DNA from: Mycobacterium sp. 1081908.1
GTDB taxonomy: Bacteria; Actinomycetota; Actinomycetes; Mycobacteriales; Mycobacteriaceae
Direction of reading: 5' to 3'
Assembly (NCBI RefSeq): GCF_001673535.1
Contig: NZ_LZLY01000097.1
Coordinates: forward strand, 21,840-53,839
Length of the DNA: 32,000 nucleotides
The translations under genes and the position numbers were made by a program. The notes beneath the pieces were generated by a model, which saw only the letters and a list, made by a program, of their open reading frames with translations, was not told where the DNA came from and did no database searches. Shown in pieces: positions 3,974 through 25,625 of this stretch (the stretch's first letter is position 1; every line of letters starts with the position of its first letter).

Positions 3974-4384
3974 TCAGCAGTTGGCGATGATCTTGAACGA
4001 GGCGGACGCCGGTTCGTTCGGCTTGTCCGTCTTGAAGCCGTTGGCCGTGCCCGTGATCGTGAATTTCTCGCCGCTCAGGCTCATGTCGGCGCTACCGCCG
4101 TCATCCTTCGAATACATGCCGGTGAAGCCGCCGAGATTTTGGATGCGCACCGATTGAGCGGTGAGTGGCTCCGCGCGTTGGTCGATGACGACCTTGGCCC
4201 CGGCGAAGTCGCCGCCGATGTCGATCGTCCGGTACCACTCCAACTGGTTGCACTTGACGACGTTGATCTTGGCGTCGTTTCCGTTGACGGTCACCGAGGC
4301 GGTGCTGGAGAGCTGCGTTTGCGCCTTGGGGCTGCAGGCGCCGAGGCCGGCGACAGCAAGCGCGGCGGCGACGACGACCACCAT
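3974..4384 (-). CDS. LpqH-family (19-kDa antigen-like) lipoprotein
   Basis: The track ORF is 3974..4495. I prefer ATG 4382-4384, which gives MVVVVAAALAVAGLGAC with an LGAC lipobox. The mature part (VTVNGNDAKINVVKCN...IDIGGDFAG...KFTITGTANG...FKIIANC) follows the LpqH pattern V.I.G......V.C....I.IGG......Y.ITGTA.G....F.I...C. Confidence 0.8.
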   Translation of the reverse strand: MVVVVAAALAVAGLGACSPKAQTQLSSTASVTVNGNDAKINVVKCNQLEWYRTIDIGGDFAGAKVVIDQRAEPLTAQSVRIQNLGGFTGMYSKDDGGSADMSLSGEKFTITGTANGFKTDKPNEPASASFKIIANC

Positions 4385-4506
4385 TCGGTTACCCACTGGG
4401 CCACCTCGATCCTGGATGACGAGCTTCTGGACCTGCTGCGATGATGTTATTCTCCCCGAAAGAGAATGCCAATATCGGCTTTTCGCCTTACCCAATTACT
4501 GGAGCG

Positions 4507-7807: not shown

Positions 7808-9592
7808 TCAGGGTTGAGGTGCGGTTTCGATCTGCTCGAAGATCCCGGAGAACTCGAACGGGGTTTGCGCTATGCCGCTGCCGTCGACGGCGTCCACCGC
7901 GCCCAACGTGCCCGTGATGTCGCGGGGCAGTTCCCACATCGACAGCTCGCCGATGTCGTGCTGCTGGGCGAAAGCCGTCAGCTGTTGGGCGTCGGCGAGG
8001 CCGAAGATTTCGCTGGGATCGTCGTTGATTCCGATCAGCGGCGTCACCCCGAGCATGTGCCACGCCTGCTGGCTGGTCAGCGACGGATAGAGCGTCATCA
8101 GCTGGCTGTGGGTGGCCGTCGCGGCGTCGATCGCGTACGCGCCCATGCCCGGGTTGCCGGTCTGGTCGAAACCGTTGCCGTAGTCCATGGCCATGATGTT
8201 CACGCGAGATATGTTCACGCCGTTGGCCGTTGCGGTCTGGATGACGTTCAACCCGCCGCCCTGCCCCTCGACCAGGCCGCTCGGCAGCACCGGAAGCGTG
8301 TAGGACACCGTCACGGGCGTGCCGTTCGCCGCCTCCTGCTGCTGCAGGATCGCGATGGCCTTCGATTGGGTGGTCATCGCTTGAGTGTTGCCCTGCAGCG
8401 CACCTTCGACGTCGAAGTCGAGGTTGTAGATCTTGTAGGTGTTCACAATCGTCGCGTACTGCTGCGCCAGCGCGGTGGGTGTCTGACCGTTGACGGCGGA
8501 TAGGTCGGTGCCGAACGCGCCGCCAAACGAGATAGTCCCGTTAATGCCGGCGGCTTTCATGTTGGCGATCTGGTTGTCGATGAACGCGCTCTGGGAGCCG
8601 CCCGTCACGTCGTACGCCGAATAGCCGCCCCAGGAGGCCTGACCCGTCGGGTCGGCGTTGATGAAGGCAAGCGTGGCGTTCTTGACTCCGTGCTGGGCCG
8701 CCGTCGCAAAGTCATATCCGTTCGGCCCGGGCCAGAGCGTTATGTCGACGTAGGGCGAGTACTCCCCGGAACCCGTTCCGCCGGTGCCGGTTCCGGTGCC
8801 GGTGCCGGTCCCCGAACCGGTCCCGCCGAGGCTGGTGCCGTCGTGGCCCCTGCCGCCATTGGCGCCCGGATTGCCGAACATCGCCGAACCTTGGCCACCG
8901 GAGCCGCCCGCGCCGCCGACGCCGCCGACGGCCCCGCTGCCGCCGTCACCCCCGTTACCGCCCACGCCGCCATTGCCGTACAGCAGGCCGCCGCTACCGC
9001 CGGCGCCGCCGGTGCCCCCGGCGCCGCCGTTGATACCCGGGGAGCCGGCGGCACCGAGCGTGCCGGTCCCGCCGGTACCGCCCCGGCCGCCGTCGGCGAA
9101 CAGGCCGGCGTCGCCGCCCCGGCCGCCCGGCTTACCCGGAAGGCCGGACCCCCCGTTGCCACCGTTACCGGCCAGCAGCCCGCCGGGCCCGCCGTTCTGC
9201 CCGGGTGCCCCGTCGGCGCCGTCGCCGATCAGCGGGCGACCCAGCATCGCGTTCGTAGGCGCGTTGATCACGCCCAGCACGTCGGCCTCGAGGGCCTGCA
9301 AGGGCGACGCGTTGGCCGCCTCGGCGGCCGCATACGCGTTGCCCGCGCCGTTGAGCGCCTGCACGAACCGCCGGTTGAAGGTCGCCGCCCGGGCGTTCAG
9401 CGACTGATAGGCCCGGGCATAGGCGGAGAACAGCGACGCGATCGCGGCCGACACCTCATCGCCGGCGGCGGGCAGCACGGCGGTGGTTCCGACGGCCGCG
9501 AGCGCATGGGCCGCCGTAAGTGTCGAACCGATGCCTGCCAGCTCCGTGGCCGCCGCGGCCACTGTCGCCGGTGCGGCAATGAGAAACGTCAT
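7808..9592 (-). CDS. PE-PGRS family protein with C-terminal glycoside hydrolase family 18 (chitinase/lysozyme-like) domain
   Basis: 594-aa ORF. The PE domain is MTFLIAAPATVAAAATELAGIGSTL...YAAAE (YxxxE at aa 87-91). Gly-rich GGxGG repeats span aa ~123-256 and a Gly-Thr/Ser linker spans aa 257-276. GH18-type motifs follow: YSPYVDITLWP, YNLDFDVEG (nt 8405-8419 encode DFDVE) and NIMAMDYG. Confidence 0.85.
   Translation of the reverse strand: MTFLIAAPATVAAAATELAGIGSTLTAAHALAAVGTTAVLPAAGDEVSAAIASLFSAYARAYQSLNARAATFNRRFVQALNGAGNAYAAAEAANASPLQALEADVLGVINAPTNAMLGRPLIGDGADGAPGQNGGPGGLLAGNGGNGGSGLPGKPGGRGGDAGLFADGGRGGTGGTGTLGAAGSPGINGGAGGTGGAGGSGGLLYGNGGVGGNGGDGGSGAVGGVGGAGGSGGQGSAMFGNPGANGGRGHDGTSLGGTGSGTGTGTGTGTGGTGSGEYSPYVDITLWPGPNGYDFATAAQHGVKNATLAFINADPTGQASWGGYSAYDVTGGSQSAFIDNQIANMKAAGINGTISFGGAFGTDLSAVNGQTPTALAQQYATIVNTYKIYNLDFDVEGALQGNTQAMTTQSKAIAILQQQEAANGTPVTVSYTLPVLPSGLVEGQGGGLNVIQTATANGVNISRVNIMAMDYGNGFDQTGNPGMGAYAIDAATATHSQLMTLYPSLTSQQAWHMLGVTPLIGINDDPSEIFGLADAQQLTAFAQQHDIGELSMWELPRDITGTLGAVDAVDGSGIAQTPFEFSGIFEQIETAPQP
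8765..8824 (-). repeat. Imperfect hexanucleotide (GGTNCC)n tract encoding the Gly-Thr/Ser linker
   Basis: Five consecutive GGTNCC units at 8783-8812 on the plus strand (ggtgcc ggttcc ggtgcc ggtgcc ggtccc), with degenerate flanks. The tract encodes GTGSGTGTGTGTGTGGTGSG. Confidence 0.5.
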
Positions 9593-9762
9593 GGCGCCAC
9601 CCGCTTTGTCGGCGTATTACGAGATCTGGCAGATGCTATTGAGCGTGGACGAGACGCCAAAGACGCTGCCAGATAAACGTTATCCAACCGTTACGCAAGA
9701 CGTATATCTGCATGACACTACGCGTGTTGGCGTCCAGCGTGTTGACAATGGCGTCCGAAAAA

Positions 9763-10053
9763 CTAGGCGAGCGTCCTGCCGACGAAATAGCAGGCGAGCA
9801 ACGCGACGCCCATCAGCACAACCCAGGCGTCCGTCAGTCGACACAGCAGGGCGGGGGCTTGCCGCACCTCCATGAATTCCCGAAAGATGATGCGCACCTT
9901 GACGAGTGCGATCACGATCACGCTCGAGGTGACGACAGCGCTGGCCCTCAGCGTTCCGTCGAGCGAGTGATCGATCCATAGGTAGGCGAGCGTCAACGAC
10001 GCCAGCACGAGCCAGACGACCAGCAGTCTCCTGTTGAATTTGATGTCGATCAC
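9763..10053 (-). CDS. Small 3-TM membrane protein, prokaryotic cytochrome oxidase subunit IV (CyoD)-like
   Basis: GTG 10051-10053 overlaps the upstream stop (GTGA). The 96-aa product VIDIKFNRRLLVVWLVLASLTLAYLWI...VVTSSVIVIALVKVRIIF...AWVVLMGVALLACYFVG has three hydrophobic spans. Its size, topology and position after a subunit III-like gene fit the subunit IV family. The family call is tentative. Confidence 0.55.
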   Translation of the reverse strand: MIDIKFNRRLLVVWLVLASLTLAYLWIDHSLDGTLRASAVVTSSVIVIALVKVRIIFREFMEVRQAPALLCRLTDAWVVLMGVALLACYFVGRTLA

Positions 10054-10613
10054 CTCACCACGTACAACAACGCGAAGATGAGCACCCAGAGGAAGTCGAC
10101 GGTGTGCCAGTATGTGGCGCAGGTTTCCACGAGCTCCTGGGACCGCCGCAGTTGGTAGACGACGACGCCGAGGACGACGAAGCCGATCAAGAGGTGCACG
10201 AAGTGGATTCCGGTGAGGAAGAAGTAGTAGGTGAAGAAGTCGTTGCTGTCCAAGCCATTTCCCATGCGAACCAACCGGGCCCACTCGAACACCTTGAAAA
10301 ATAGGAACACTGCGGCCAGTGCGACCGTGATGAAGACGTCCCGCAGGGCCGCGCGGTAGGCGCCGGCGCGGGACGACTGAACGCAGCGCGCCACCGACCA
10401 CGAGCTCAGCAGCAAGACCAGGGTGTTGAAGACCCCGATACGCAGGTCCAGCTGCGCCTGCGAGTGCAAGAAGAGCTCGGGACTTCGGGCGCGATAGAAC
10501 AGGTAGAAGCCGAAATACCCTGTGAAGACCAGGGTCTCGAACAACACAAACGCCCACATGTCGGGCTGGCCGGGCACGAACCTGGCGCTCTTCTTCTCGG
10601 CCAGGTCGGTCAT
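10050..10613 (-). CDS. Heme-copper oxidase subunit III-like (CoxIII/CyoC/NorE-like) membrane protein
   Basis: ATG 10611-10613 overlaps the upstream stop (ATGA). The 187-aa product carries subunit III hallmarks FFTYYFFLTGIHFVHLLIGFVVLG and TYWHTVDFLWVLIFALLYV, and has five hydrophobic spans. Confidence 0.8.
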   Translation of the reverse strand: MTDLAEKKSARFVPGQPDMWAFVLFETLVFTGYFGFYLFYRARSPELFLHSQAQLDLRIGVFNTLVLLLSSWSVARCVQSSRAGAYRAALRDVFITVALAAVFLFFKVFEWARLVRMGNGLDSNDFFTYYFFLTGIHFVHLLIGFVVLGVVVYQLRRSQELVETCATYWHTVDFLWVLIFALLYVVR

Positions 10614-11425
10614 CGCGCAACGGCCTTCCGCGGCGCGCGCTCGGGCAACGGCCCGTCGCCGAAGTCCTCGCGCTGGATCATCCGAAACAGCATGACGATG
10701 AAAGTGACTTGGTAGACGCCGAACACCACCATGTCCAGCCACCACGCGATCTGACCGTTCCACGCCAGCACGCCACGCCGGAAGATCCAGCACGGCGCCA
10801 CGACGACCTCGGTCAGGGCGTTGCACAGGTTGAGGTAGCCGAACCACTTGGGGAACACCCGATTCTTGTCGAGCAGAATCGCGAGCATCCAGATCAGCGA
10901 GCCGATCAGGAAGACTCCCATGGTTCCGTCGAAAGACAGGAAAGCGAAGTCGTAGAGCCAGCCGATCGCTTCGGGGTCTCGCTCTTCTCGCAGCGTCCCG
11001 ACGACCAGCGCGATGTTGAGCAGCAGCATCCCGGGAACCGCACTGAACGAGTAGATAAGCAGATACGAGTATCCGAAGGCGCGGCTGACCGACATTCGCC
11101 GCATCGAATAAGCGATGAGGGCGTTGTTGGTCGCGATCATGCCGCTGATGGCGAAGATGACACCGAATCCAACGGGAATCCCGAGGTGGCGTTCATGGAA
11201 CCAGTGCACCTGCGTCGCGAGGTCCCACGTCGGCTGCGGCGGCGGCTGTACCTGCGCCACGATGAAGAACACCGGGAAGAAGAAGTTGTAGAAGACGACC
11301 AGCGCCGCCCACGCCAGCCAGAGCTCGCGCCTGGGGTCGCGCCGCAGGTGCCAGGCGATCCGGTGGTGCAGCGGTCCCGGGGGCGGCGTGGCTGGAGAAA
11401 CCGCCTGCGCCGCTACGGCACTCAC
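10610..11425 (-). CDS. Polytopic membrane protein, paralog B (function unknown)
   Basis: GTG 11423-11425 overlaps the upstream stop (GTGA). The 271-aa product has multiple TM spans. It aligns by eye with paralog A (MRRMS.SRAFGY / RRMAHRTPIFSY; RDPE / RSPE; VFPKWFGYLNL / VFGRWVAHFNL; AWNG / AWDG; ...RE C-terminus). Confidence 0.7.
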   Translation of the reverse strand: MSAVAAQAVSPATPPPGPLHHRIAWHLRRDPRRELWLAWAALVVFYNFFFPVFFIVAQVQPPPQPTWDLATQVHWFHERHLGIPVGFGVIFAISGMIATNNALIAYSMRRMSVSRAFGYSYLLIYSFSAVPGMLLLNIALVVGTLREERDPEAIGWLYDFAFLSFDGTMGVFLIGSLIWMLAILLDKNRVFPKWFGYLNLCNALTEVVVAPCWIFRRGVLAWNGQIAWWLDMVVFGVYQVTFIVMLFRMIQREDFGDGPLPERAPRKAVAR

Positions 11426-12207
11426 GCGCTTACCAGTTCGTCGCCGTGCTGACGGTTCTCGGCGCGCTCCCGGTAGATCGCTTGCCCCAGAACCAAACCC
11501 ATCACGATGATCCAGACGGCGATGGCGACGTTTTTCACCCAGAACGACAAAAAGCCGTCCCACGCCAGCGGTCCGGTCAATGACACGCCGACGAAGGCGG
11601 CGGGCACCAGGGCGGCCGCCACCAAAAGGTTGAAGTGAGCCACCCAGCGGCCGAATACCGGCCGCGGCTGGTCGTCGAAATAGATTGCCAGGGCCAGGAT
11701 CACGCTTTGGCCGATCAGAAACGGGACCACGATGGTGAACGTGATCCAGCCGAAGTCGTTGAGCAGCTGCGTCAGCTCCGGGCTTCTTTCGGGACGGAAG
11801 GCGGCCAGCAGCCAGCACACGTTGGCGACGAGGAACAGGGTCGGGCCGCCGGCCACGCAACCCAACATCGCGTAGGAGAAGATCGGCGTCCGATGTGCCA
11901 TCCTGCGGATCTGCAACACGATCAGGGTCAGGACCGGGACCAGGCAGACCCCGAACCAATTGAAAACGATCATGCTGTAGCGGATCTGTGGCAGCCGCGC
12001 CGGATCGCGATAGAACGCGGCCACCTGATCGGCCGACATGCTGGGCGACATCGGCGGATTGAAGCCCGGAAACAGGACAAAGCAGGCGACCCAGATGATC
12101 ACCGTCGCGGGCAACGTCCACAGCAGGATCAGCTCACCGTCGGTACGGCGCAATCGAGTTCGCGGAGATCGGCGGCGCTTTGGGTTGTTCTCGCCAACGT
12201 CGGACAT
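11422..12207 (-). CDS. Polytopic membrane protein, paralog A (function unknown)
   Basis: The track ORF is 11422..12240. I prefer ATG 12205-12207 (MSDVGENNPKRRR), preceded by GAAGGAG with a 7-nt spacer. The 261-aa hydrophobic protein is the first gene of a four-gene overlapping operon. Confidence 0.7.
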   Translation of the reverse strand: MSDVGENNPKRRRSPRTRLRRTDGELILLWTLPATVIIWVACFVLFPGFNPPMSPSMSADQVAAFYRDPARLPQIRYSMIVFNWFGVCLVPVLTLIVLQIRRMAHRTPIFSYAMLGCVAGGPTLFLVANVCWLLAAFRPERSPELTQLLNDFGWITFTIVVPFLIGQSVILALAIYFDDQPRPVFGRWVAHFNLLVAAALVPAAFVGVSLTGPLAWDGFLSFWVKNVAIAVWIIVMGLVLGQAIYRERAENRQHGDELVSA

Positions 12208-12256
12208 CGCCTGGCTCCTTCGCTGCGACGGCCTGGACACGGTTCGTGAGCGAAAC

Positions 12257-15775: not shown

Positions 15776-17458
15776 TCAGGTGGCGAACATGTCCTTCCAC
15801 GTTTTCGGCGCCTTGGGCGACGTGGGCTTGACCAGATCCGATTGCCGGTAAACGTGGCCATCCGGGGTCACGTAGGTGCCGTTGCGCGGGTTGTACTGGG
15901 CGATCGCCACCGATGGACCGCTCTGAGACTCGTTGTGCCCGAATGCACTTGGCGCGGCCGAAGGCCCCGCGGGAGGCCCCGCCGGCGCCGCCGGCGCCGC
16001 AGCCGGCGCCGGCGACCCGGCGGGGGCAGCGGGAACGTCGATCGGCGCAATCGGTGACACCTCCCCCATCTGCGCCAACGGGCTGAGCGGCGCCGCGGGC
16101 GGCGGCAAGGCCGATGCCGGCGGCGTTCCCCGCGGCACCGCGCCCGGCGGCAGCGGCGTTCCCTCCACCGGCCCGAAGATTCTTTCGCGGTTCCAGTTGA
16201 CCCGGTCGTCGGGCGGGATGCCCTGCGCGATGAGGTTCGGGTCCAGCGGGTAAGTGCCGAACACGTGCTGTCTCATCGCCAACGGCTCGAAAGGCTTGTC
16301 GCTCTCGCAGATTTCGACGGTGGGCGCGCGTTTCCCCGGCTGTCCCATGCAGGGATAGTTTCGGGCACCGCGCACCGCGATGGGCGAATCCTGCGGCAGT
16401 TTGCAGTACAGCCCGTCCGGCGTGTCGATGGTGCGGGTGTCGGCTGCGGAACGCCATTGGCTCGGCGGCAGGAAGCCGACCGTGCAGGCGGGTGGGTCAC
16501 TGATGATGAGATTGAAGGCGCCCGTGGCCAATCCGGTCGGCGACTTCGTGCCGACGAACGACTGAATCGCCGCGGTGAACGGCGGCAGCAAAACCAGAAT
16601 CTGTTCGATCGAAGCGTGATAGGTCACGCCGATCTGGCCGATCGTGGTCAGGTTCGCAAGCAGCACCGGCAACGTCGGTTTGATTTGGTCGAGCAGCCGG
16701 GACGCCTCGTTGAGGGCTCCAGGCCCCTGTTGCAGCAGGGTGCGGAACTGTGGGTCGTCCTTCGCCAGCTGGCCGCTGAATCCGGCGAGGCTGCGCGCCC
16801 ACGTCCGGATCGAATCGGCGGTCTGGGCTTGCGCGTCCAGGAAGGGCCCGGTGTCTTCGGTCAGGTTCCGTGTCTGGTCGGCGACACCGTTGAGGTCACC
16901 CGAGACCCGTGCCGAACTGTCGAACAGCGATCCGAAATCGTAACCGCTGCCGTTGAATGCCTTGAACGACTCGTCGAGCAACTGACCGAGCTTGCCCTTG
17001 GGGATGCTGTTGATCAACGCGCTGGACTGGTCGAGCACTGGGCCGATCGGTTGGGGGATCGTCGTGTCGTTCATCGCGATCACCGAGCCGTCGTGCAGGT
17101 AAGGCGGCGAGTCGTTGCGGGGCCGCAGATCGACGTAATACTCGCCCACCGCGGAGATGCTCAGCACCTCCGCCTTCAGGTCCGCCGGTATCTTCGGCGA
17201 AGTATCAAGGGACAGCGTGGCTTTCGCGCCATCGGGGGTCAGCCCCACCGCGGTCACCTTGCCGATCTGCACCCCTCGGTAGGTCACATTGCTGAAGCGG
17301 TACAGGCCACCGGTGGCGGGCAGTTTCAGCGTGACCGTCATCTTGCCGATGCCGAGCAGGGTCGGCGCCTGGACGTACCACAACGCCATGACGACCACAC
17401 CGACGATCCCGACGATCGTGAAGATCGCCAACTGGATACGGACAAACCGGGTCAGCAT
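15776..17458 (-). CDS. mceF: Mce-family substrate-binding protein MceF
   Basis: 560-aa ORF and sixth mce gene. An N-terminal TM (IQLAIFTIVGIVGVVVMALWYV) is followed by an MlaD/MCE segment (MTVTLKLPATGGLYRFSNVTYRGVQIGKVTAV) and a Pro/Ala-rich C-terminal region. The start codon directly abuts the mceE stop. Confidence 0.9.
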   Translation of the reverse strand: MLTRFVRIQLAIFTIVGIVGVVVMALWYVQAPTLLGIGKMTVTLKLPATGGLYRFSNVTYRGVQIGKVTAVGLTPDGAKATLSLDTSPKIPADLKAEVLSISAVGEYYVDLRPRNDSPPYLHDGSVIAMNDTTIPQPIGPVLDQSSALINSIPKGKLGQLLDESFKAFNGSGYDFGSLFDSSARVSGDLNGVADQTRNLTEDTGPFLDAQAQTADSIRTWARSLAGFSGQLAKDDPQFRTLLQQGPGALNEASRLLDQIKPTLPVLLANLTTIGQIGVTYHASIEQILVLLPPFTAAIQSFVGTKSPTGLATGAFNLIISDPPACTVGFLPPSQWRSAADTRTIDTPDGLYCKLPQDSPIAVRGARNYPCMGQPGKRAPTVEICESDKPFEPLAMRQHVFGTYPLDPNLIAQGIPPDDRVNWNRERIFGPVEGTPLPPGAVPRGTPPASALPPPAAPLSPLAQMGEVSPIAPIDVPAAPAGSPAPAAAPAAPAGPPAGPSAAPSAFGHNESQSGPSVAIAQYNPRNGTYVTPDGHVYRQSDLVKPTSPKAPKTWKDMFAT

Positions 17459-18889
17459 CTACGAGCCCCCGTCCGTCGGCTGGCTCGGGGTCGGGGTCGC
17501 GCCCGGCACCGGGGCACCCTGGTCGGCCGGCGCGGCAGCGCCCGCCGGCGGCGGACCGGGCAGCGTCGCTGTCGGCGACTGCTGCGCGTCGGGACCGAGC
17601 CACCTCAGGCCCGCGATCAACGGCGACACCGGTGGCGGTGCCGCGGGCGGCGGTGTGTCTGCCGATTGCTGGTTCACCGGCCCCGGCGCCGCGGCCGGCG
17701 GCGGTCCGGGCAGCGGCCGCCCCCAGGGTGGCGGTGGCCCGAAGGGTGCCGGTTCCCCGGTCGGTCCGGGCTTGCTGAGCGCCCCGGGCGCCCCGGGCGG
17801 TGCACCGTATCGGAATTGCAGGTATTCCGGATCCGCGGGCCCGGGCACGGCCTCGGCACCGATCCGCTCCCAATGGGTGCCGCGGAGGATGCCCTTGCGC
17901 AGCCCGGCGTTCGTCAGATCGATGATGAAATACCCGTTGAGGTAGTCGCCCCGGATGTACCGGTCGATGATGCTCTGGGCCCACGGGAACGTCGGCGCGT
18001 ACGCGAGGGCGGCGTCCAAATCCGGCCCGATGTCGGCGAGCGCACCGAGTGCCGGCGCGAGGTTCGTCAAGTTCTTCACCAAGTCATCGCCCGCGTCGTT
18101 GACGAGCCTGGTCGCGGTGTTGCTGAACGTCCCGAGCTTGTTCAGCGCGGTCGTGATGCGGGGGCGCTCCTTGATCAGGACGTCCAGTGCGGGCGGAATC
18201 TTGTACAGCGCCTGGGTGATCACGTCGCGCTGGGCGGCGAACGTGCCGGACAGGCGATTGAGGGCATGTATCGACGCGACGAGATTGTCGCGCTGCTGGT
18301 CGAGTGTGCCCACGAACCGGTCGAGGCGCTCGAGCAGATCCCGAACGGCGCCTTCGTTTCCCGAGAGGGCGGCGTTGAAGTTGTGGATGATGTCCCCGAA
18401 TTGACCCAGCCCGCCGGCGTTGAGGATCACCGACAGCGACGACAGCGTCTGTTCGGTCGACGGATAGGTGGACGAGCGGTTCAGCGGGATCGTGGCGCCC
18501 GGCTGCAGGCGTCCGGACGCCGGCTGGCCCAGCGGCGGATTGAGCGCCAGATGCATGGAACCCAGCAGGCTGGTCTGGCCGACGCTGGCCACCGCGTTGG
18601 CGGGGATCACCGTGCCGGGCTTTACCGAGATTTCAACGTCGGCGTGCCATCCCCGCACCGTCATCTTGCTGATGCTGCCGACGATGACATCGTCGATCAT
18701 TACCGGCGAATTCGGTTCCATCGTAACGACGTTGGCGAGTTCCACGTGGTAGGTGGTGGCACCCGGGCCTCGTCCCACCGCGCCCGGCAACGGCAGCGAG
18801 TTCAGGCCGTTGAACGCGCATCCGCTCACCGCGAGCATGACGCAGCAGACGATGCCGAGCACGCGCCGCATCGCGATCCGGGGGGTCAT
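17459..18889 (-). CDS. mceE: Mce-family lipoprotein MceE (LprK/LprN-like)
   Basis: 476-aa ORF with the lipobox MRRVLGIVCCVMLAVSGC. It has an MCE domain (YHVELANVVTMEPNSPVMIDDVIVGSISKM) and a long Pro-rich tail. It overlaps the mceD stop by 4 bp. Confidence 0.9.
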   Translation of the reverse strand: MTPRIAMRRVLGIVCCVMLAVSGCAFNGLNSLPLPGAVGRGPGATTYHVELANVVTMEPNSPVMIDDVIVGSISKMTVRGWHADVEISVKPGTVIPANAVASVGQTSLLGSMHLALNPPLGQPASGRLQPGATIPLNRSSTYPSTEQTLSSLSVILNAGGLGQFGDIIHNFNAALSGNEGAVRDLLERLDRFVGTLDQQRDNLVASIHALNRLSGTFAAQRDVITQALYKIPPALDVLIKERPRITTALNKLGTFSNTATRLVNDAGDDLVKNLTNLAPALGALADIGPDLDAALAYAPTFPWAQSIIDRYIRGDYLNGYFIIDLTNAGLRKGILRGTHWERIGAEAVPGPADPEYLQFRYGAPPGAPGALSKPGPTGEPAPFGPPPPWGRPLPGPPPAAAPGPVNQQSADTPPPAAPPPVSPLIAGLRWLGPDAQQSPTATLPGPPPAGAAAPADQGAPVPGATPTPSQPTDGGS

Positions 18890-20331
18890 GGTTGCGCTCC
18901 TTCACCCGGGAGCAGCATGTCCTGAAGGTTCGCAGGGGCGCCCGGCGGCGGCGAGGGCGGCGGTGCTGCGGCGGGCGGCGGTTCCCCCGGCGGGGGTTCC
19001 GGCATCGCCGCGCCCGGGATCCGCCCCATCGGCACCGAACCCGGCGGCCCAACCGGGTCTCCCGGCAGCCCGGTGTACGCGGAAACGGCCGGCGGCATCA
19101 ACGGCGGGCCGGGCCTGGGCCCCTCACCGCCGGGCTTCAGCCGATCCTCGCTGTAGACAACGTTTTCGGGGGCGAACGAGGGAGCCAGGATCGGGTTGAC
19201 CGGAATCGGGAGATAGTTGAAGTTGACGATGAAGTTCGGGTTGAACACCTTCAGCGCCGGGCTCAGATACAGGCCGCACAGCTTGCCCGTCTCTACGGCG
19301 GTGACGTTCTCGATGGCCCCGATGCCCGCACACCACGCATACGTCGGATTGGTGAAGTTCTGCAGGCCGACGCCGCCGCGGATGTTGCCGGAGTCAGGGT
19401 CGTAGGCGTTGTAGGCGTTTGCGAGCGCGGTCGGCGAGATGTGTAGCACGTTTTTCAACGCCATCTTTTGGTCGACGAGTATCTGTGTCAGGTCGGCCAG
19501 CCGCGAAATCTGTTCGGAGGTCGCATCACGACTGCCGGCGATGAACCGCTGCACCTCGCCGACCGCGTTCGCCAGGTCCGTCAGCGCCGCGTCCAAATCG
19601 GACTTGTTGTCGTCGAGCACGCTGGTCAGCGTCGCCAGCCGGTTGTCGAACTGCACGATCTGCACATTGCTTTCGCGCAGCGCCCCGACGAATGCCTGCA
19701 GGTTCTTGATGATGTCGACCAGGTTGCCGCTGCCTTCGGCGAAGACCCGGGCGACCCCGGACAGTTGGGCCAGCGTCTGGTGCAGCTTCTCGCCGTTGCC
19801 GCCGCCCAGCGCGTCGGCTGCACTGTCGATGAACCGCGCCACCGACGGAGTGGACACCTTGCTGTTGGGACCCAATTCCGTTGCCAGACGCATCAATTGC
19901 TCTTTGACCTGGTCCCATTCGACGGGCACCGCCGTCCGTTCGATCGGTATCACCGCGCCGTCACGCATGGTGGGGCCGCTCGACCGGTAGGCCGGCGTGA
20001 GCTGTACGTAGCGCGCCGCCACCAGGTTTTGGGCGACGATCACCGCCTTCGCGTCCGACGGAATGGGCACGCTGCGATCGACGTGCATCACCAGCTTCGC
20101 CCGGGTCCCCTGGGGCTGAATGGACGAGATGGTGCCGACCTTCATGCCGGACACCCGCACGTCGTCGCCGGGATAGATCGCGGTGGCCGTGGGGAAGTAA
20201 GCGGTGATGGTCGTCGGACGAAAGAAGGTGTTGCGGATGGCGATCGCCGCGCCGACGACAACGAGACCCGCCAGCACGATCGCCAGTCCCACCTTGAGCT
20301 TGTTGCGCGGAATCGCCCGTAGCCCCGTCAT
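18886..20331 (-). CDS. mceD: Mce-family substrate-binding protein MceD
   Basis: The track ORF is 18886..20451. I prefer ATG 20329-20331 (MTGLRAIPRNKLKVGLAIVLAGLVVVGAAIAI), which overlaps the mceC stop (ATGA). It has an MCE domain (ITAYFPTATAIYPGDDVRVSGMKVGTISSI) and a Pro-rich tail. Confidence 0.9.
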   Translation of the reverse strand: MTGLRAIPRNKLKVGLAIVLAGLVVVGAAIAIRNTFFRPTTITAYFPTATAIYPGDDVRVSGMKVGTISSIQPQGTRAKLVMHVDRSVPIPSDAKAVIVAQNLVAARYVQLTPAYRSSGPTMRDGAVIPIERTAVPVEWDQVKEQLMRLATELGPNSKVSTPSVARFIDSAADALGGGNGEKLHQTLAQLSGVARVFAEGSGNLVDIIKNLQAFVGALRESNVQIVQFDNRLATLTSVLDDNKSDLDAALTDLANAVGEVQRFIAGSRDATSEQISRLADLTQILVDQKMALKNVLHISPTALANAYNAYDPDSGNIRGGVGLQNFTNPTYAWCAGIGAIENVTAVETGKLCGLYLSPALKVFNPNFIVNFNYLPIPVNPILAPSFAPENVVYSEDRLKPGGEGPRPGPPLMPPAVSAYTGLPGDPVGPPGSVPMGRIPGAAMPEPPPGEPPPAAAPPPSPPPGAPANLQDMLLPGEGAQP

Positions 20332-21410
20332 GGCCGCCCTCCCGGGTCCTGGTTGAACGGGAACGGGAAGAAGGCCCGCGGCCCGGCGGTGTCCGGCGGC
20401 TGACCGGGCGCGCCGTAGGCGCGGAACCCGAAGGCGTAGTCGAACAACCACTGGAAGAATTCAAGCTGGAAAAGGTTGGGGATGAACGGGTTGTAGTAGT
20501 AGCCGCTCGAGACGGTCTCCCCCTGCGTCAGCTCGTATTTCGCCAGTCCGGGAAGCGCTTTGGCGAGATTGTCGCGGTTCTTTTCCAGGACCGCCGTCAC
20601 GGAGTTCAGTTTTTCCAGGGTCGGCGCCAGCTTCGCTTCGTTGTCGTGCACTATGCCGGAGAGCTGCCGGGCCACCGCGGACGTGCTGGCCAGCAGCCGC
20701 ACGATCGCCTGGCGCCGCGCCACCAGCATCGACAATAAGTCATTGGCGTTGAGGATCAGTGTGTTCAGCTGCTGGCTACGTTGCCCGAGGACGCCGGTGA
20801 CGTCGGCGGCGCCCTTGAGCAACTGCCCGAGCGTCTGGTTGCGGGCGTTGAGGGTCTGGGAAAGCCGGCTCACCCCGTCGAACGCGGGACCCAGTTGCGG
20901 CGCAACCTGATTCAGCGTCGCCGACAGCGTGTCAAGGGACTGGTTGAGCGACTCGGTGTTGGTTCCCTGCAGGTCGGTCGTCAGGTCGTTGACGGCCTCG
21001 GACAGCGAATACGGCGAGGAGGTGCGCGACACCGGGATGACGGCCATCGGATGCAAGTTGCCGGTGCCCGCGGAGTCGACCGTGAGCACCCGCTGGCCCA
21101 ACAGCGAACCGGTCTTGATGTGTGCGGTGCTGGCCGAGCCGAGCAGGATGTTGCCCTTGGCGGTGAACGTCACCAGCACGTCGCCGTGCTGCAGCGACAT
21201 GCCCGTCACGCTGCCGACCTTGATTCCCGAAATCGTCACGTCGTTGCCCAGCGCGAGGCCACCGGCATCAGCGAACAGCGCCTGGTAACGGACCGTGGTG
21301 GCCCGCTGGACCAGCTGATCGGGGTTCAGCCCGACGGCGATGACCAGGGCTATGAGGACGGCGCCGATGAATCCGGCCTTGATGAGGCCCGCTCCGCGAT
21401 ACTTATTCAT
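20328..21410 (-). CDS. mceC: Mce-family substrate-binding protein MceC
   Basis: The track ORF is 20328..21533. I prefer ATG 21408-21410 (MNKYRGAGLIKAGFIGAVLIALVIAVGL), which overlaps the 3' end of mceB by 8 nt. MCE domain: YQALFADAGGLALGNDVTISGIKVGSVTGM. Confidence 0.9.
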   Translation of the reverse strand: MNKYRGAGLIKAGFIGAVLIALVIAVGLNPDQLVQRATTVRYQALFADAGGLALGNDVTISGIKVGSVTGMSLQHGDVLVTFTAKGNILLGSASTAHIKTGSLLGQRVLTVDSAGTGNLHPMAVIPVSRTSSPYSLSEAVNDLTTDLQGTNTESLNQSLDTLSATLNQVAPQLGPAFDGVSRLSQTLNARNQTLGQLLKGAADVTGVLGQRSQQLNTLILNANDLLSMLVARRQAIVRLLASTSAVARQLSGIVHDNEAKLAPTLEKLNSVTAVLEKNRDNLAKALPGLAKYELTQGETVSSGYYYNPFIPNLFQLEFFQWLFDYAFGFRAYGAPGQPPDTAGPRAFFPFPFNQDPGGRP

Positions 21411-22443
21411 CGGGGTCCTTCGGTTCCGCGCACCGCCCGGTGGTCTGGTGTTTGATGCCCACTTCCACCGTCCGGTACTGCAAGTCGGACACCCGCAGCG
21501 ACAGTCCGCACAGGTAGTAGGGGAACCATGCACCGTACGACCCGAGCCTGAGCAGTTTGCGGTAGTTGTGCGGCAACTTCTGCAGCGAGGTGTCGATCAG
21601 GTTCTTGTCCTTGTCCAGCAGCGGGGCCAGCCGATTCGCCTGGTCCACCGTCGCGGCCAGCGGTTGGCGGGCGCGGGTGAGCAGATCCGCGATCGATGCG
21701 GTGCCGTTGTCCAGGGCCGTGATCGCGGTGCCGATGGTGTCACGATCCTGGTCGAATCCACTGACCAATTTCTCCAGGCGGTCGATGGCGCCGGAGAACT
21801 TGGTGCCGTCCTTGTCGACGGTGGCCACCACTGCGTTGAGGTTGTCGATCAGCTCCTGCACCGTCTGGTTGTTGTCGGCCAACGTGTTGGAGAACGACGA
21901 CGTCTTCGACAGTAGCGACTGCAGGGTCCCGCCCTCGCCCTGGAAGACCTGGATGAGCGCCGCGCTCAGCGCGTTGACGTCTTGCGGATTGAGGCCCTGG
22001 GTAACGGGTTTCAGCCCGCCCAGCAGCAGATCGATGTCCAGGGCCGGCGCCGTCCGATCGAGCGGGATCTCCGATCCCGCCGGCAGGACCTTGGTGGACC
22101 CCGGGCCGTCGGTCAGCTCGAGATAGCGATCACCGACCAGGTTCAGGTAGCGAACCACGGCGCGGGTGCCGGTGGTCAGCACCACGCTGCGGTCGGCGTC
22201 GAACTTCACCTCGACCTTCTTGTCGGCGCGCAGCTTGACGCTGTTGACCGTGCCCACCCGGATGCCGGCGACCCGGACGGTCTCGCCGGTCTTCAGCCGC
22301 GACACGTCGGTGAAGAGCGCCGAATACCCGTTCGTCGAACCGGTGGTGTACTGCCCAAAGATGAAGAACAGGAACACGGTCAGCACGACCATCACGGTGG
22401 CGAACGCCCCGAACTTGAGGATCATCCCGCGCGAGCCGGTCAT
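21403..22443 (-). CDS. mceB: Mce-family substrate-binding protein MceB
   Basis: The track ORF is 21403..22626. I prefer ATG 22441-22443 (MTGSRGMILKFGAFATVMVVLTVFLFFIF), which overlaps the mceA stop (ATGA). MCE domain: YSALFTDVSRLKTGETVRVAGIRVGTVNSV. Confidence 0.9.
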   Translation of the reverse strand: MTGSRGMILKFGAFATVMVVLTVFLFFIFGQYTTGSTNGYSALFTDVSRLKTGETVRVAGIRVGTVNSVKLRADKKVEVKFDADRSVVLTTGTRAVVRYLNLVGDRYLELTDGPGSTKVLPAGSEIPLDRTAPALDIDLLLGGLKPVTQGLNPQDVNALSAALIQVFQGEGGTLQSLLSKTSSFSNTLADNNQTVQELIDNLNAVVATVDKDGTKFSGAIDRLEKLVSGFDQDRDTIGTAITALDNGTASIADLLTRARQPLAATVDQANRLAPLLDKDKNLIDTSLQKLPHNYRKLLRLGSYGAWFPYYLCGLSLRVSDLQYRTVEVGIKHQTTGRCAEPKDPDE

Positions 22444-23717
22444 CCGGGCATCCCGATCTGCATGGTGTTGCGAGGCGGTCCGTCGATCGGCCCGTACAGC
22501 AGCTGCTTGAGCGCATCGGAGTTGAGCAGCAGTTGCTGGTTGCCGTACTGCGTGGGGTTGGAGCCGTTGTCCGTCACCACGAACGGCGGCGCGACGTCGA
22601 AGGGCACCACCGGAAGGTCCCGGCATTGCGGCCCGCCGGTCGCCGCCACCTTGGGCAGGTTGGACGGGTAGCGGTAACGCTCGGCGCCGAGGCCGAGGAC
22701 GACGGTGACCTTAACCATCGGCTCGGGCAGGTCCGGCGCATGCAGGTTCCCCAGCGACCCGGCGATGCCGCAGTACAGCGCCTGATGGTACTGGTTGAGC
22801 AGATCGGTGGTCGGCACCAGCAGATGCAGGTCGTCCGTCAGCGCTTGCCGGTTGCCGCCGACCACCTCATTGCCCAAGTCCGCCAAGCCAATCGAGCTGA
22901 TCAGGAAGGCATCCAGGTTTTGTTGCTCGTCGACGATCGTCTTGCTGATCCGCACGGCATTGTCGGTCGTGGCCAGCAGGTGCGGCGCCGCGTCGGCGTA
23001 GGCCTCGCTCACCGCGGGCAGGGCCTCGAGGTCATGGCTCAGCGCGGGAAGGCTGGGCTCCTGGGTGGCCAGGAATGAATCCAGATCGCGCAGCATCTGG
23101 CCGATCTTGTGGCCGCGTCCGTTGACCGCAGACGCTAGTGCGCCGAGCGTTTCGTTGAGCTTGGCGGGATCGATCGTCGACAGCAGCGATGTGAGTTGCT
23201 GGAACACCGTGTTGATTTCGACGGTGACATGTTTGCCCTCAAGCACCTGACCCGCGCGCAGCGACTGCGGCGACGGCTCCGCGGGCGGTACCAGCTCAAT
23301 GAACTTCGCGCCGAACACCGTCGTCGACGCGATATCGACGAGAACATTGGCCGGGATGAGGTGCATCTGCGACGGTTGCATCGCGAGGTGCAGGACGGCT
23401 TCGCCGTTGGGCCGCACGTCGATTGAGGCGACCTTGCCCACCTCGACGCCACGCATCTTCACCTTGGCCTCGGGGTTCATCACCAGGCCGGCGCGCGGCG
23501 AGACGACGGTAACGGGCACGCTCGTGGTGAAGGAGCCCTGAAATAGGCCTATCGCGACGGCGAAGACCAGGCCGATGAGGACGATGGTCGCCAGCCCCGC
23601 CAACGGCCGCACGTACGACTGCGCGCCGAAGTGGCGCCCGGGCGATGCCGCGACGGGCCGTGCGGCACTGGTGGTTTCGGACCGGTGAATGGGGCCCGGC
23701 CCGAGGTCACGCGTCAC
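22440..23717 (-). CDS. mceA: Mce-family substrate-binding protein MceA
   Basis: 425-aa ORF with a GTG start at 23715-23717. A TM (LAGLATIVLIGLVFAVAIGLF) is followed by an MCE domain (VTVVSPRAGLVMNPEAKVKMRGVEVGKVASI). Confidence 0.9.
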   Translation of the reverse strand: MTRDLGPGPIHRSETTSAARPVAASPGRHFGAQSYVRPLAGLATIVLIGLVFAVAIGLFQGSFTTSVPVTVVSPRAGLVMNPEAKVKMRGVEVGKVASIDVRPNGEAVLHLAMQPSQMHLIPANVLVDIASTTVFGAKFIELVPPAEPSPQSLRAGQVLEGKHVTVEINTVFQQLTSLLSTIDPAKLNETLGALASAVNGRGHKIGQMLRDLDSFLATQEPSLPALSHDLEALPAVSEAYADAAPHLLATTDNAVRISKTIVDEQQNLDAFLISSIGLADLGNEVVGGNRQALTDDLHLLVPTTDLLNQYHQALYCGIAGSLGNLHAPDLPEPMVKVTVVLGLGAERYRYPSNLPKVAATGGPQCRDLPVVPFDVAPPFVVTDNGSNPTQYGNQQLLLNSDALKQLLYGPIDGPPRNTMQIGMPG

Positions 23718-23736
23718 TGTCCTTTCACCACCTTCC

Positions 23737-24585
23737 CTAGCCCGACAGGTTGAAGTTGCCGTTGGTGCCGTAGATGGACAGCGAGACGAGCAGCGTCACC
23801 GACACGACGACGATCAACGAGGTTCGCACCGCGTTACCGGTCGCGACGCCGACACCGGCCGGTCCGCCCGAAGCAAAGTAGCCGAAATAGGTGTGAATCA
23901 ACAAGATTGTGATCGCCATCAGGACGGCCTGCAGGAACGACCACAACAGGTCGATCGGATTGAGGAACGTCGAGAAGTAGTGCTGATACAGCCCGCCCGA
24001 CTGGCCGAACAGGACCACGGTGGTGAATTGGCTCGCGAAGAACGACAGGATGACGGCAATGGAATACAGCGGCGTGATCGCCATCATTCCGGCCGCGATC
24101 CGGGTGCTGACCAGATACGAAACCGGCCGGATCGCCATGGATTCCAACGCGTCGATCTCTTCGTTGATCCGCATGGCACCCAGCTGCGCGGTCACGCCGG
24201 CGCCGAAGGTGGCCGCCAGACCGATCCCGGCGACGATCGGCGCCGCGATGCGAACATTGATGAACGCCGCCAAGAACCCGGTCAACGCCTCGATGCCGAT
24301 GTTGCCCAGCGAGCTATAGCCCTGGACGGCCAGCGTGCCGCCGGCGGCCAGCGTCAAGAAGCCGACGATCACCAGCGTGCCGCCGATCATGGCCAAAGTT
24401 CCTGCGCCCATGCTGATTTCGGCGATCAGGCGGATGACTTCCCGCCGGTAATGCCGGACGGCAAAGGGGACCCCGGCAAGCGCCTTGCCGTAGAACAGCG
24501 TGTGATCGCCGATCCGGCTCAGGGTGCCGACCGGCTTTTCGAGCTGCCGCGTCAGGCGCGGGTACGTGGCTCTCAGCGTCATCAC
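23737..24585 (-). CDS. yrbEB: YrbE/MlaE-type permease subunit B of the Mce transporter
   Basis: 282-aa polytopic ORF with the conserved permease EExDA loop (RINEEIDALESM). The start is GTG 24585 or ATG 24582. Confidence 0.9.
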   Translation of the reverse strand: MMTLRATYPRLTRQLEKPVGTLSRIGDHTLFYGKALAGVPFAVRHYRREVIRLIAEISMGAGTLAMIGGTLVIVGFLTLAAGGTLAVQGYSSLGNIGIEALTGFLAAFINVRIAAPIVAGIGLAATFGAGVTAQLGAMRINEEIDALESMAIRPVSYLVSTRIAAGMMAITPLYSIAVILSFFASQFTTVVLFGQSGGLYQHYFSTFLNPIDLLWSFLQAVLMAITILLIHTYFGYFASGGPAGVGVATGNAVRTSLIVVVSVTLLVSLSIYGTNGNFNLSG

Positions 24586-24604
24586 GGTATGCCCCTATAC
24601 CTCC

Positions 24605-25423
24605 TCAGTGGCCCTTGGCCGACATGCGGATACCGATAGCCGTCACAACCACATTCACGACGAACAGCGACATGAACGCGTACACGACCGTTTCGTTGAC
24701 GGCGTTGCCGACCGCCTTGGCGCCCCCACCGGACACCGTCAGCCCCCGGTAGCACGCGACCAACCCGGCGATCAGGCCGAAAAGCGCTGCCTTGACACAG
24801 GAAATGACCACCTCGGGCACGCCGGTCAGCAGGGTGATGCCGGCGGCGAACGCACCGGGATTGACGTCTTGGACGAACACCGAGAAGACGTAGCCGCCGA
24901 CAATACCGATGATGACCACCAGGCTGTTCAGCAGCAGCGCCACCAGACCCGCGGCCAGCATGCGGGGTGTCACGAGGCGCTGAACCGGGTTGATGCCCAG
25001 CACCTCCATCGCGTCGATCTCTTCTCGGATCGTTCGGGATCCCAGGTCCGCGCACATCGCCGTGGAACCGGCGCCCGCCACGATCAACACCGTGACCAGT
25101 GGGCCGACCTGGGTCACCGCACCGAAGGCCGCGCCGGCCCCGGACAGGTCCGCGGCGCCCAGTTCCCGCAGCAGGATGTTTAGCGTGAAGCTGACCAGGA
25201 CGGTGAACGGAATGGCCACCAGCAGGGTGGGAGCGAGCGCCACCCGGGCGACGAACCACGACTGCTCCAGAAACTCACGCCACTGGAAGGGCCGGCGGAA
25301 CACGAACTTGATGGCGTCGGCCGACATCGCGAACAAGCCGCCGACGGCCTCCATGGGCTTGGAGCCCCGGCCGAGCGAAATGCCGCCGGTCCATCGCTCC
25401 GGGCCCGCGCGCTTAATCGCCAT
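24605..25423 (-). CDS. yrbEA: YrbE/MlaE-type permease subunit A of the Mce transporter
   Basis: The track ORF is 24605..25510. I prefer ATG 25421-25423 (MAIKRAGPERW...), preceded by GGAAGGGA. The product is 272 aa, polytopic, with the EExDA loop (TIREEIDAMEV). Confidence 0.85.
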   Translation of the reverse strand: MAIKRAGPERWTGGISLGRGSKPMEAVGGLFAMSADAIKFVFRRPFQWREFLEQSWFVARVALAPTLLVAIPFTVLVSFTLNILLRELGAADLSGAGAAFGAVTQVGPLVTVLIVAGAGSTAMCADLGSRTIREEIDAMEVLGINPVQRLVTPRMLAAGLVALLLNSLVVIIGIVGGYVFSVFVQDVNPGAFAAGITLLTGVPEVVISCVKAALFGLIAGLVACYRGLTVSGGGAKAVGNAVNETVVYAFMSLFVVNVVVTAIGIRMSAKGH

Positions 25424-25625
25424 CGGCCTCAGTCCCTTCCAACATTTTCGAGACCGATGGTCTTGTTCCGCCGAATGACAGGCTGTAGATTTGGCTGGAC
25501 CGACGGCCACAAACGCGAGCTACCACAGTCGAAATGCGTTGCGGACAGCCGCATTCCGGCATTCGCCTCGGTGCGACAGCCACTACCATCCTCACGCCAC
25601 TCCTCCGTTCTGTCGCGTGAGTTGG

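Follow-up and report, generated by a model that had tools for sequence, protein, structure and literature searches.

Mycobacterial proteins that join an N-terminal PE domain to a chitinase domain of glycoside hydrolase family 18 (GH18) have been predicted in silico, with members listed from M. liflandii, M. marinum and Mycobacterium sp. (Sultana et al., 2016, PLoS One 11:e0146786; PMC4758615). There the PE-GH18 proteins, among them WP_012393793.1, WP_012395848.1 (ACC40460.1, ACC42687.1) and ABL03629.1, were modelled on the structure 2DSK, with a conserved D522/D524/E526 motif, and a protein combining PE, carbohydrate-binding (CBD) and GH18 domains, WP_036414736.1, was described (PMC4758615). 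Precedent for PE as a removable secretion module, with export through ESX-5, a system for type VII secretion, and trimming by PecA, comes from LipY (Rv3097c, PE_PGRS63) and the PE-cutinase MMAR_0369 (PMC6819658; PMC13578627). Here we describe a gene from Mycobacterium sp. 1081908.1 that lies in a 32,000-nucleotide stretch of contig NZ_LZLY01000097.1 (positions 21,840 to 53,839; hereafter the window). By analogy with these systems its product, a PE-PGRS-GH18 protein, is probably an ESX-5-exported, PecA-trimmed surface or secreted chitinase.

Like the proteins predicted in 2016, it carries an N-terminal PE domain and a C-terminal GH18 domain with a conserved DxDxE motif, and the class is found in certain slow-growing mycobacteria only. 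Unlike them, it contains PGRS repeats and no carbohydrate-binding domain, and its species is not listed there. Because the architecture had already been predicted, we regard the protein as a new, unlisted member of a computationally known class. We take ACC40460.1 and ACC42687.1 to be M. marinum proteins and, from its accession series, ABL03629.1 to come from M. ulcerans. Our analysis adds positional orthology, evidence for selection, the exchange of a signal peptide for PE and a precise deletion of the family 2 carbohydrate-binding module (CBM2); synteny, selection, signal-peptide replacement and CBM2 loss were not addressed by the earlier study. With LipY and MMAR_0369 the protein shares a PE domain with the YxxxD/E motif (YAAAE in LipY), a linker and a C-terminal hydrolase, but where it has a glycoside hydrolase TIM barrel they carry a lipase or cutinase of the alpha/beta-hydrolase type. 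MMAR_0369, whose 'hydrolase' cargo is PecA-validated, was considered as a chitinase and rejected, since it is a cutinase.

The gene occupies positions 7808-9592 of the window as a single unbroken open reading frame (ORF) of 594 amino acids with an ATG start, on the minus strand. An earlier reading made from the letters alone (the sequence-only reading) did not give the strand; all of its motif coordinates are right when read on the minus strand, and a plus-strand reading was rejected, its translation being unrelated to the PE-PGRS-GH18 protein. The closest in-frame stop upstream of the ATG, at 9617-9619, is only 24 nucleotides away, so a longer N-terminus is hardly possible. An exact-sequence look-up identified the protein as WP_067010993.1 / OBK47554.1 of Mycobacterium sp. 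1081908.1, publicly named only 'PE domain-containing protein'. The gene's third-position GC content (GC3) of 0.87 resembles that of the other real genes of the window, whose overall GC content is 65–70%. All four proposed modules, PE, PGRS repeats, Gly/Thr linker and a GH18 domain of about 318 residues, are present in this one ORF, with the following features:

7808..9592, minus strand: complete coding sequence of the PE-PGRS-GH18 protein, 594 aa, stop codon at 7808-7810
9296..9592, minus strand: PE domain, aa 1-99, two long helices predicted, Pfam PF00934 match with 103.9 bits and E=5.8e-30
9320..9334, minus strand: YAAAE, aa 87-91, the YxxxD/E motif for type VII secretion, in its YxxAE sub-form
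9227..9241, minus strand: GRPLI, aa 118-122, PE-to-PGRS linker and PE_PGRS signature
8825..9217, minus strand: PGRS domain, aa 126-256, GGxGG-type repeats, 49% Gly
8765..8824, minus strand: Gly/Thr/Ser linker GTGSGTGTGTGTGTGGTGSG, aa 257-276, encoded by (GGN-ACC)n repeats
7811..8764, minus strand: GH18 domain, aa 277-594, a (beta/alpha)8 barrel with sequence and fold matches
aa 278-288, minus strand: YSPYVDITLWP, coordinates confirmed
8519..8530, minus strand: SFGG, aa 355-358, the SxGG motif, within predicted strand E76-82 (domain numbering)
8405..8419, minus strand: DFDVE, aa 392-396, the DxDxE motif, Glu396 being the predicted general acid
8177..8194, minus strand: MAMDYG, aa 467-472, ordered M-x-M-D-Y, taken as the subfamily's form of the motif on GH18 strand 6
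7934..7942, minus strand: SMW, aa 551-553, Trp553 at least 90% conserved in 40 homologs (Trp278 in domain numbering)

Where the sequence-only reading could have failed, it held: the C-terminal domain has GH18 matches in both sequence and fold, Glu396 aligns with a catalytic glutamate, and the fusion is one conserved ORF. The Pfam Glyco_hydro_18 model (PF00704) matches aa 298-505 at E=6.6e-7, marginally above threshold with 29.7 bits against a gathering cut-off of 29.6, which is probably why public annotation misses the domain. The matches to solved chitinases and the outcome of the fold search weigh more than this marginal score. Residues 276-594 align end to end with the hydrolase domain of Streptomyces venezuelae Chitinase 1 (9BUF; E=4e-54, ~40% identity) and with Pyrococcus furiosus ChiA AD2 (2DSK; E=2e-35, ~30% identity). 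An AlphaFold2 model of the domain, built on an alignment of 40 homologs reaching down to ~40% identity, has a predicted local distance difference test (pLDDT) of 94.8 and a predicted template-modelling score (pTM) of 0.93, its strands and helices alternating as in a TIM barrel. A Foldseek search of the PDB with the superposed model gave 9BUF (template-modelling score, TM, 0.85/0.92) and 2DSK/3A4X (TM 0.82/0.87) and then further GH18 proteins; practically every one of the best 50 fold matches belongs to GH18, and the TM reaches 0.92. The proposed GH18 fold is thus borne out, at TM 0.82–0.92 to 9BUF and 2DSK.

The S. venezuelae enzyme and the CBM2-GH18 proteins of Streptomyces, Streptacidiphilus and Kitasatospora share the DFD(I/V)EG and NIMAMDYG motifs with the window protein, but carry a twin-arginine (Tat) or Sec-type signal and CBM2 where it has PE-PGRS. 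No paper describing 9BUF was found in the literature searched. P. furiosus ChiA AD2 (2DSK, 3A4W, 3A4X, 3AFB) belongs to the same GH18 subfamily, its D522/D524/E526 corresponding to DxDxE, and differs in being an archaeal, hyperthermophilic, multi-domain protein with chitin-binding domains of its own and neither PE nor PGRS.

The catalytic residues appear intact. The SxGG motif is a hallmark of GH18; Gly357 and Gly358 do not vary among the 40 homologs, and conservation is at least 90% at Ser355 and Phe356 (residues 80-83 in domain numbering). DFDVE follows predicted strand E115-119 (domain numbering), DFDVEG aligns with DFDIEG of 9BUF and P. furiosus ChiA, and Asp392, Asp394 and Glu396 (D117/D119/E121 in domain numbering) are invariant in the homologs. 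As the sequence-only reading had supposed, the catalytic glutamate is preserved: Glu396 aligns with catalytic Glu526 of P. furiosus ChiA AD2, which is Ala in the 3A4W mutant chain (DFDIA). The same reading had described MAMDYG as an MxYD motif; the motif lies where it was placed, but it is not a literal MxYD, its order being M-x-M-D-Y. In the canonical strand beta6 motif, M-x-Y-D, the Tyr and Asp assist the oxazolinium intermediate. Met467 and Met469 are invariant and Asp470 and Tyr471 at least 90% conserved in the homologs. The order is also that of 9BUF (NIMAMDYG) and P. furiosus ChiA (NPMTMDYY), and since both solved relatives have it, it is probably a subfamily trait rather than a defect. 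Trp553 aligns with a conserved Trp of P. furiosus ChiA ('lafW' of 2DSK), chain residue 258, which by our own count is presumably Trp664 and which we assume to be a substrate-stacking residue.

Of the three substrates first proposed for the cargo, namely chitin, peptidoglycan and N-glycans, chitin is the one best supported by homology. The profile of the subfamily finds its closest solved relatives, both chitinases, at E=1e-132 and 1e-80 and matches canonical GH18 chitinases (4AXN at 8.6e-7, 3IAN at 1.7e-6, 3EBV at 4.7e-6), whereas Endo H is reached only at ~6.5e-4. We consider it likely that the domain is a competent chitinase. We also considered a lysozyme- or hevamine-like muramidase that acts on peptidoglycan instead of chitin, either remodelling the cell's own wall or attacking that of competitors. 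One homolog is indeed named 'Lysozyme [Frankia sp.]' and others 'sugar hydrolase', hevamine (a GH18 protein with lysozyme activity) appears as a distant fold match at rank 48, and loss of CBM2 removes a module that targets chitin and cellulose. However, the 'lysozyme' name is an unverified automatic annotation, the nearest solved relatives are by a very wide margin enzymes deposited as chitinases, and relatives outside Mycobacterium are nearly always fused to the chitinase-typical modules CBM2, CBM5/12 or FN3. Export through ESX-5 past the mycomembrane would, moreover, put the enzyme on the wrong side of the envelope for its own peptidoglycan, and we consider a muramidase quite unlikely.

The N-terminal half of the protein is that of a PE_PGRS protein. 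The Pfam PE match spans aa 4-94 and all of the profile (positions 1-91 of 91), and the domain matches the solved PE8 (5XFS) at 8e-13 and PE25 (4W4L) at 1e-9 over its whole length. Helices are predicted at 8-37 and 46-92 in a low-confidence full-length AlphaFold model based on 8 homologs (mean pLDDT 63.9, PE ~35), which we used for secondary structure only. Residues 8-9 (nt 9566-9571) are Pro-Ala (MTFLIAAPATV) and not the name-giving Pro-Glu, as they are throughout the clade of the window protein, and the M. kansasii and M. ostraviense orthologs keep Pro-Glu. The dipeptide is a naming feature that the hidden Markov model match does not need, and Pro-Ala does not exclude membership of the PE family.

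The YxxxD/E secretion motif is confirmed as YAAAE, and its Tyr87 and Glu91 are invariant in alignments of PE-GH18 proteins, orthologs and paralogs alike. Its YxxAE sub-form is reported as a PecA cleavage site, and the GRPLI motif that follows is named for PE_PGRS proteins (PMC13578627). Apart from Ile122, the GRPLI residues are invariant across PE-GH18 proteins: G118, R119, P120, L121 and G123 in one alignment (A4), and R119 to G123 in another (A3). The predicted run of about 130 residues of PGRS repeats is present, with a Pfam PGRS match (PF21526) at aa 122-185 (E=1.7e-7, 31.9 bits against a cut-off of 27); in the full-length model aa 120-180 have a pLDDT of ~80–87 and no regular secondary structure. 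The pure Gly-Thr/Ser linker was likewise found as described. The NCBIfam model for LipY (NF052352) matches only the PE part (aa 11-109), and membership of LipY was rejected, as the 98.6 bits fall far under the 450-bit cut-off of this equivalog model.

A small COX3/COX4_pro-like operon lies on one side of the gene and a convergent cytochrome P450 gene on the other, beyond which follow genes for a TetR regulator, an enoyl-CoA hydratase, a 19-kDa lipoprotein homolog, an amidohydrolase and an acyl-CoA synthetase. The order COX3 / COX4_pro / PE..GH18 / P450 / TetR is shared by the window, Mycobacterium sp. 852002-51057 (L001), M. kansasii (L003) and M. ostraviense (L084), and because of this common neighborhood we consider the three other genes positional orthologs. 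The M. kansasii and M. ostraviense genes encode the same PE, GRPLI, PGRS and GH18 modules, the GH18 domain of the window protein being 85–86% identical to M. kansasii P0003 and P0004 and 61% identical to M. ostraviense P0015. They differ from the window protein in carrying CBM2 and an additional Gly/Thr/Ser linker. PE, PGRS and GH18 are likewise combined in single ORFs of L004, L005, L007, L008 (M. paraense) and L010. The survey of related mycobacteria thus finds orthologs in at least 8 other Mycobacterium genomes, with the fusion conserved as a continuous ORF and the shared gene order seen in the three named above.

GC-rich repetitive PGRS and Gly/Thr-coding DNA is error-prone, and the public calls of the orthologs are split or cut, which raises the possibility that the fusion is an assembly or frameshift artefact of two separate genes, one PE-PGRS and one chitinase. 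The M. kansasii gene is called 'partial' or split because an N-gap falls within its Gly/Thr-coding repeats; read through, the ORF (L003:9116-11650) encodes PE-PGRS-(Gly/Thr)n-CBM2-(Gly/Thr)n-GH18 over at least 844 aa. In M. ostraviense the public call is a 302-aa 'chitinase' that covers only part of an intact ORF of 739 aa (L084:4690-6909, CP089224.1) with PE-PGRS-linker-CBM2-linker-GH18. The apparently split orthologs are therefore single ORFs once re-read, the ORF of the window is unbroken, independent genomes (including the complete-genome record CP089224.1) have the same continuous ORF, and the GH18 domain is preceded by neither an alternative start nor a signal peptide. An artefact is thus extremely improbable: since the fusion is one ORF, conserved and syntenic in other species, we hold it practically certain that it is real. 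Because these two calls under-represent their ORFs, several other mycobacterial database entries with GH18 only or CBM2 only may also be truncated PE fusions.

All modules are under purifying selection, the GH18 domain most strongly. Against five close orthologs, the ratio of nonsynonymous to synonymous substitution (dN/dS, Nei-Gojobori) is 0.09–0.19 for GH18, 0.17–0.38 for PE and 0.22–0.40 for linker plus PGRS, and against the more distant M. ostraviense ortholog it is 0.45–0.49 for all three. These values bear on the view that the GH18 domain is non-catalytic in vivo, a chi-lectin-like binding module or adhesin, or that the gene is silent or decaying and the protein only a PE_PGRS surface antigen. 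Many PE_PGRS genes are variable, the apparently disrupted GH18 gene of Mycobacterium sp. 050134 (P0018) indicates that decay occurs in the family, and no expression or activity data for PE-GH18 proteins were found in the literature searched. Nevertheless, neither of the other two modules has ratios as low as those of GH18, no catalytic or subfamily-invariant residue has been lost, and the catalytic Glu that chi-lectins typically lack is present, which makes this view very improbable.

The history of the fusion can be traced in its relatives. Our scan took one genome per species and found more than 583 relatives of the GH18 subfamily across Actinomycetota, Planctomycetota and other phyla; domain architecture was surveyed in the best 80 of these loci. 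Within those 80, PE lies upstream of the GH18 domain only in Mycobacterium sensu stricto, Mycolicibacterium copies carry Calx-beta or other modules, and Streptomyces, Streptacidiphilus, Kitasatospora, Frankia and similar genera have CBM2-GH18. The latter begin with classical signal peptides, often with a twin-arginine run (e.g. MTSHAKPTGSRRRRSRRSTVIGASAAAAALVGG...), and because of this the PE-PGRS part appears to sit in place of a Tat/Sec signal. Although the catalytic subfamily is common to both, the CBM2-GH18 chitinase architecture was rejected for the window protein: its N-terminus is PE, and neither Pfam nor a CBM2 probe detected CBM2 in it.

In alignment A3, the clade of the window protein (window, L001, L004, L005, L007 and L008) lacks exactly the linker and CBM2 cassette, with the junction inside the Gly/Thr linker at aa 257-276. 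In M. ostraviense, CBM2 is flanked by direct (GGN-ACC)n repeats ~378 nt apart, and the same kind of repeat encodes the linker in the window. Given these repeats, in-frame deletion of CBM2 by recombination or slippage is the simplest explanation. From the aligned sequences, the window lineage has plausibly lost the CBM2 cassette by in-frame recombination between Gly/Thr-coding linkers.

In a bootstrapped neighbor-joining tree (Kimura distances), the PE-fused domains cluster apart from the Mycolicibacterium and Streptomyces-type clades, which are well supported. This clustering suggests, but does not prove, that PE was captured only once. Two features of the tree speak against it: the node uniting all PE-fused domains has less than 50% bootstrap, and a non-PE sequence from a metagenome-assembled genome (MAG), L014 (CBM2-FN3-GH18), nests inside the group. 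M. marinum P0014 (L085:855-2447) is a PE-PGRS-GH18 protein whose GH18 domain is ~62% identical to that of the window; its gene stands beside sigma-70-family and DtxR-family regulator genes, and because the locus differs we regard it as a paralog. This protein and P0008 have DFDDEG in place of DFDVEG, which is still DxDxE.

Several further relatives were noted. M. intermedium P0027 is publicly called as CBM2-GH18. An uncultured Actinomycetota MAG (L006, CAVVLC010000036.1) holds two tandem GH18 genes, L006:1-1146 and L006:1787-4951; the upstream copy clusters with L007 (bootstrap 100%), and the downstream copy, a 1055-aa segment with PE, three CBM2 stretches and GH18, is the most elaborate architecture seen. 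In M. simulans (L009:3-3500), an ORF of more than 1166 aa, its N-terminus cut by the contig end, apparently has two GH18-like regions flanking three CBM2 modules, with phmmer matches over aa 48-1164 and the best Pfam GH18 stretch at 882-1052. In Mycobacterium sp. 050134, P0018 (333 aa) reads DYDVEGAMQSN, then an unrelated stretch (VLHPSRRAVGPRRRIEGG), then family sequence again, which suggests that this GH18 gene is frameshifted or decaying. Two proteins of the chytrid fungus Batrachochytrium salamandrivorans, an amphibian pathogen, P0044 (BSLG_005581) and P0102 (BSLG_005595), share ~42% identity over the whole domain and stand among bacterial clades in the tree. The subfamily is otherwise bacterial and archaeal, and these copies could be due to horizontal transfer into the fungus or to contamination.

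CBM2 normally targets insoluble chitin, and its absence bears on what the window protein degrades. One alternative is an endo-beta-N-acetylglucosaminidase (ENGase) or other glycan-trimming enzyme that acts on host N-glycans or chito-oligosaccharide-like structures, as a host-interaction factor in mostly clinical isolates of non-tuberculous mycobacteria (NTM). GH18 includes Endo H, to which the subfamily profile has its weak match, and the whole clade of the window protein is without CBM2. The numbered Mycobacterium strains have names that look like those of clinical isolates, an impression taken unverified from the names, and M. paraense (L008) is a named species. PE_PGRS proteins in general are reported to be surface-exposed host-interaction antigens (PMC7550000). 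The profile nonetheless favors chitinases at 1e-132 and 1e-80 over Endo H at ~1e-3, there is no ENGase among the best 50 fold matches, and the CBM2 kept by same-locus orthologs points to an ancestry on insoluble polysaccharide; such an activity is, we think, distinctly unlikely. A related but unlikely idea is that loss of CBM2 marks a shift from crystalline environmental chitin to soluble or host- or vector-derived glycans of N-acetylglucosamine (GlcNAc) at the bacterial surface, in a chitinase re-routed from Tat/Sec to ESX-5. If this were true, NTM would have in this protein a hitherto overlooked factor that degrades glycans in their interaction with host or vector, and not a mere nutrient scavenger.

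For the interpretation that we prefer, an exported chitinase, the following model can be drawn by analogy. The PE domain with its YxxxD/E motif, probably together with a PPE partner and the EspG5 chaperone, would route the protein into ESX-5. Once it is at the cell surface, PecA, an aspartic protease, may cut after an Ala in or near YAAAE and remove the PE domain, leaving a PGRS-linker-GH18 protein that would be surface-associated or released. LipY and PecA are both ESX-5 substrates with YAAAE, and PecA removes PE domains (PMC6819658); its cuts fall after Ala, in many cases within YxxAE, and it was shown to set free the hydrolase domain of MMAR_0369 (PMC13578627). YAAAE in an Ala-rich setting is likewise present in the window protein, whose export is probably ESX-5-dependent. 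The GH18 domain is predicted to hydrolyse beta-1,4-GlcNAc polymers, for instance arthropod, fungal or protist chitin or chito-oligosaccharides, by a substrate-assisted retaining mechanism with Glu396 as general acid, and the GlcNAc oligomers produced may serve as nutrients. Its ancestor would have been an actinobacterial-type CBM2-GH18 chitinase with a Tat/Sec signal, captured by a PE-PGRS module in a slow-growing Mycobacterium, after which the window lineage would have dropped the CBM2 cassette. The enzyme without CBM2 may prefer accessible or soluble substrates.

Several observations weigh against this interpretation. The PE domain is poorly modelled in the full-length prediction, the Pfam GH18 score barely passes its threshold, and the strand-6 aromatic residue, Tyr471, comes after Asp470 instead of before it, although active relatives share that order. 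No ESX, PPE, EspG or PecA gene is found within the 32-kb window. Because CBM2 is missing, the physiological substrate may not be crystalline chitin. Ecologically the model is plausible in that chitin promotes the growth of M. ulcerans, a species annotated with chitinase genes (PMC5928104; PMC6468629), but two of these annotated genes are down-regulated on chitin (PMC6468629). The sequence-only reading could link a GH18 cargo to no characterised protein; this still holds for experiment, as the literature searched yielded no study of the enzymatic activity, secretion or expression of a PE-GH18 protein, but not for the architecture, given the in silico prediction of 2016.

The remainder of the window consists of ordinary mycobacterial lipid-metabolism and transport genes, including genes for a CoA-transferase, an aldehyde dehydrogenase, a short-chain dehydrogenase, a second P450 and a second TetR regulator. 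Its further features are:

9763-10062, minus strand: COX4_pro-like gene, directly upstream of the PE gene
10050-10847, minus strand: COX3-like gene, in the directly upstream cluster
10610-12121 and 11422-12240, minus strand: two ORFs with no Pfam match, whose counterparts in L001, L003 and L084 have ~250-280 codons
12308-12889, plus strand: divergent TetR gene, beyond the COX cluster
15776-25510, minus strand: complete mce-type operon, with two MlaE/YrbE permeases at 23737-25510 and six Mce/MlaD genes with Mce4_CUP1 domains at 15776-23717
3974-4495, minus strand: 19-kDa lipoprotein antigen homolog, Pfam Myco_19_kDa, E=2e-29

The COX cluster (9763-12240) accompanies the chitinase gene in all four syntenic genomes. 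The 19-kDa lipoprotein homolog, four genes from the chitinase gene, is kept in the syntenic loci, and the M. kansasii locus has a Mce gene at the edge that corresponds to the mce operon of the window.

PE-GH18 proteins are hidden in public annotation because the Pfam GH18 model barely detects this subfamily and gene callers stumble on the repeats. The ortholog series forms a natural experiment, from signal peptide-CBM2-GH18 to PE-PGRS-CBM2-GH18 to PE-PGRS-GH18, in which secretion and targeting modules are swapped. Among cargos of type VII secretion, the window protein is a good candidate for the first glycoside hydrolase. Were its activity and ESX-5 export true, glycoside hydrolases would join the few experimentally proven enzymatic PE cargos (lipases, a cutinase and aspartic proteases), and there would be a molecular basis for the link to chitin that is reported in the ecology of slow growers from the environment, M. 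ulcerans and M. marinum among them.

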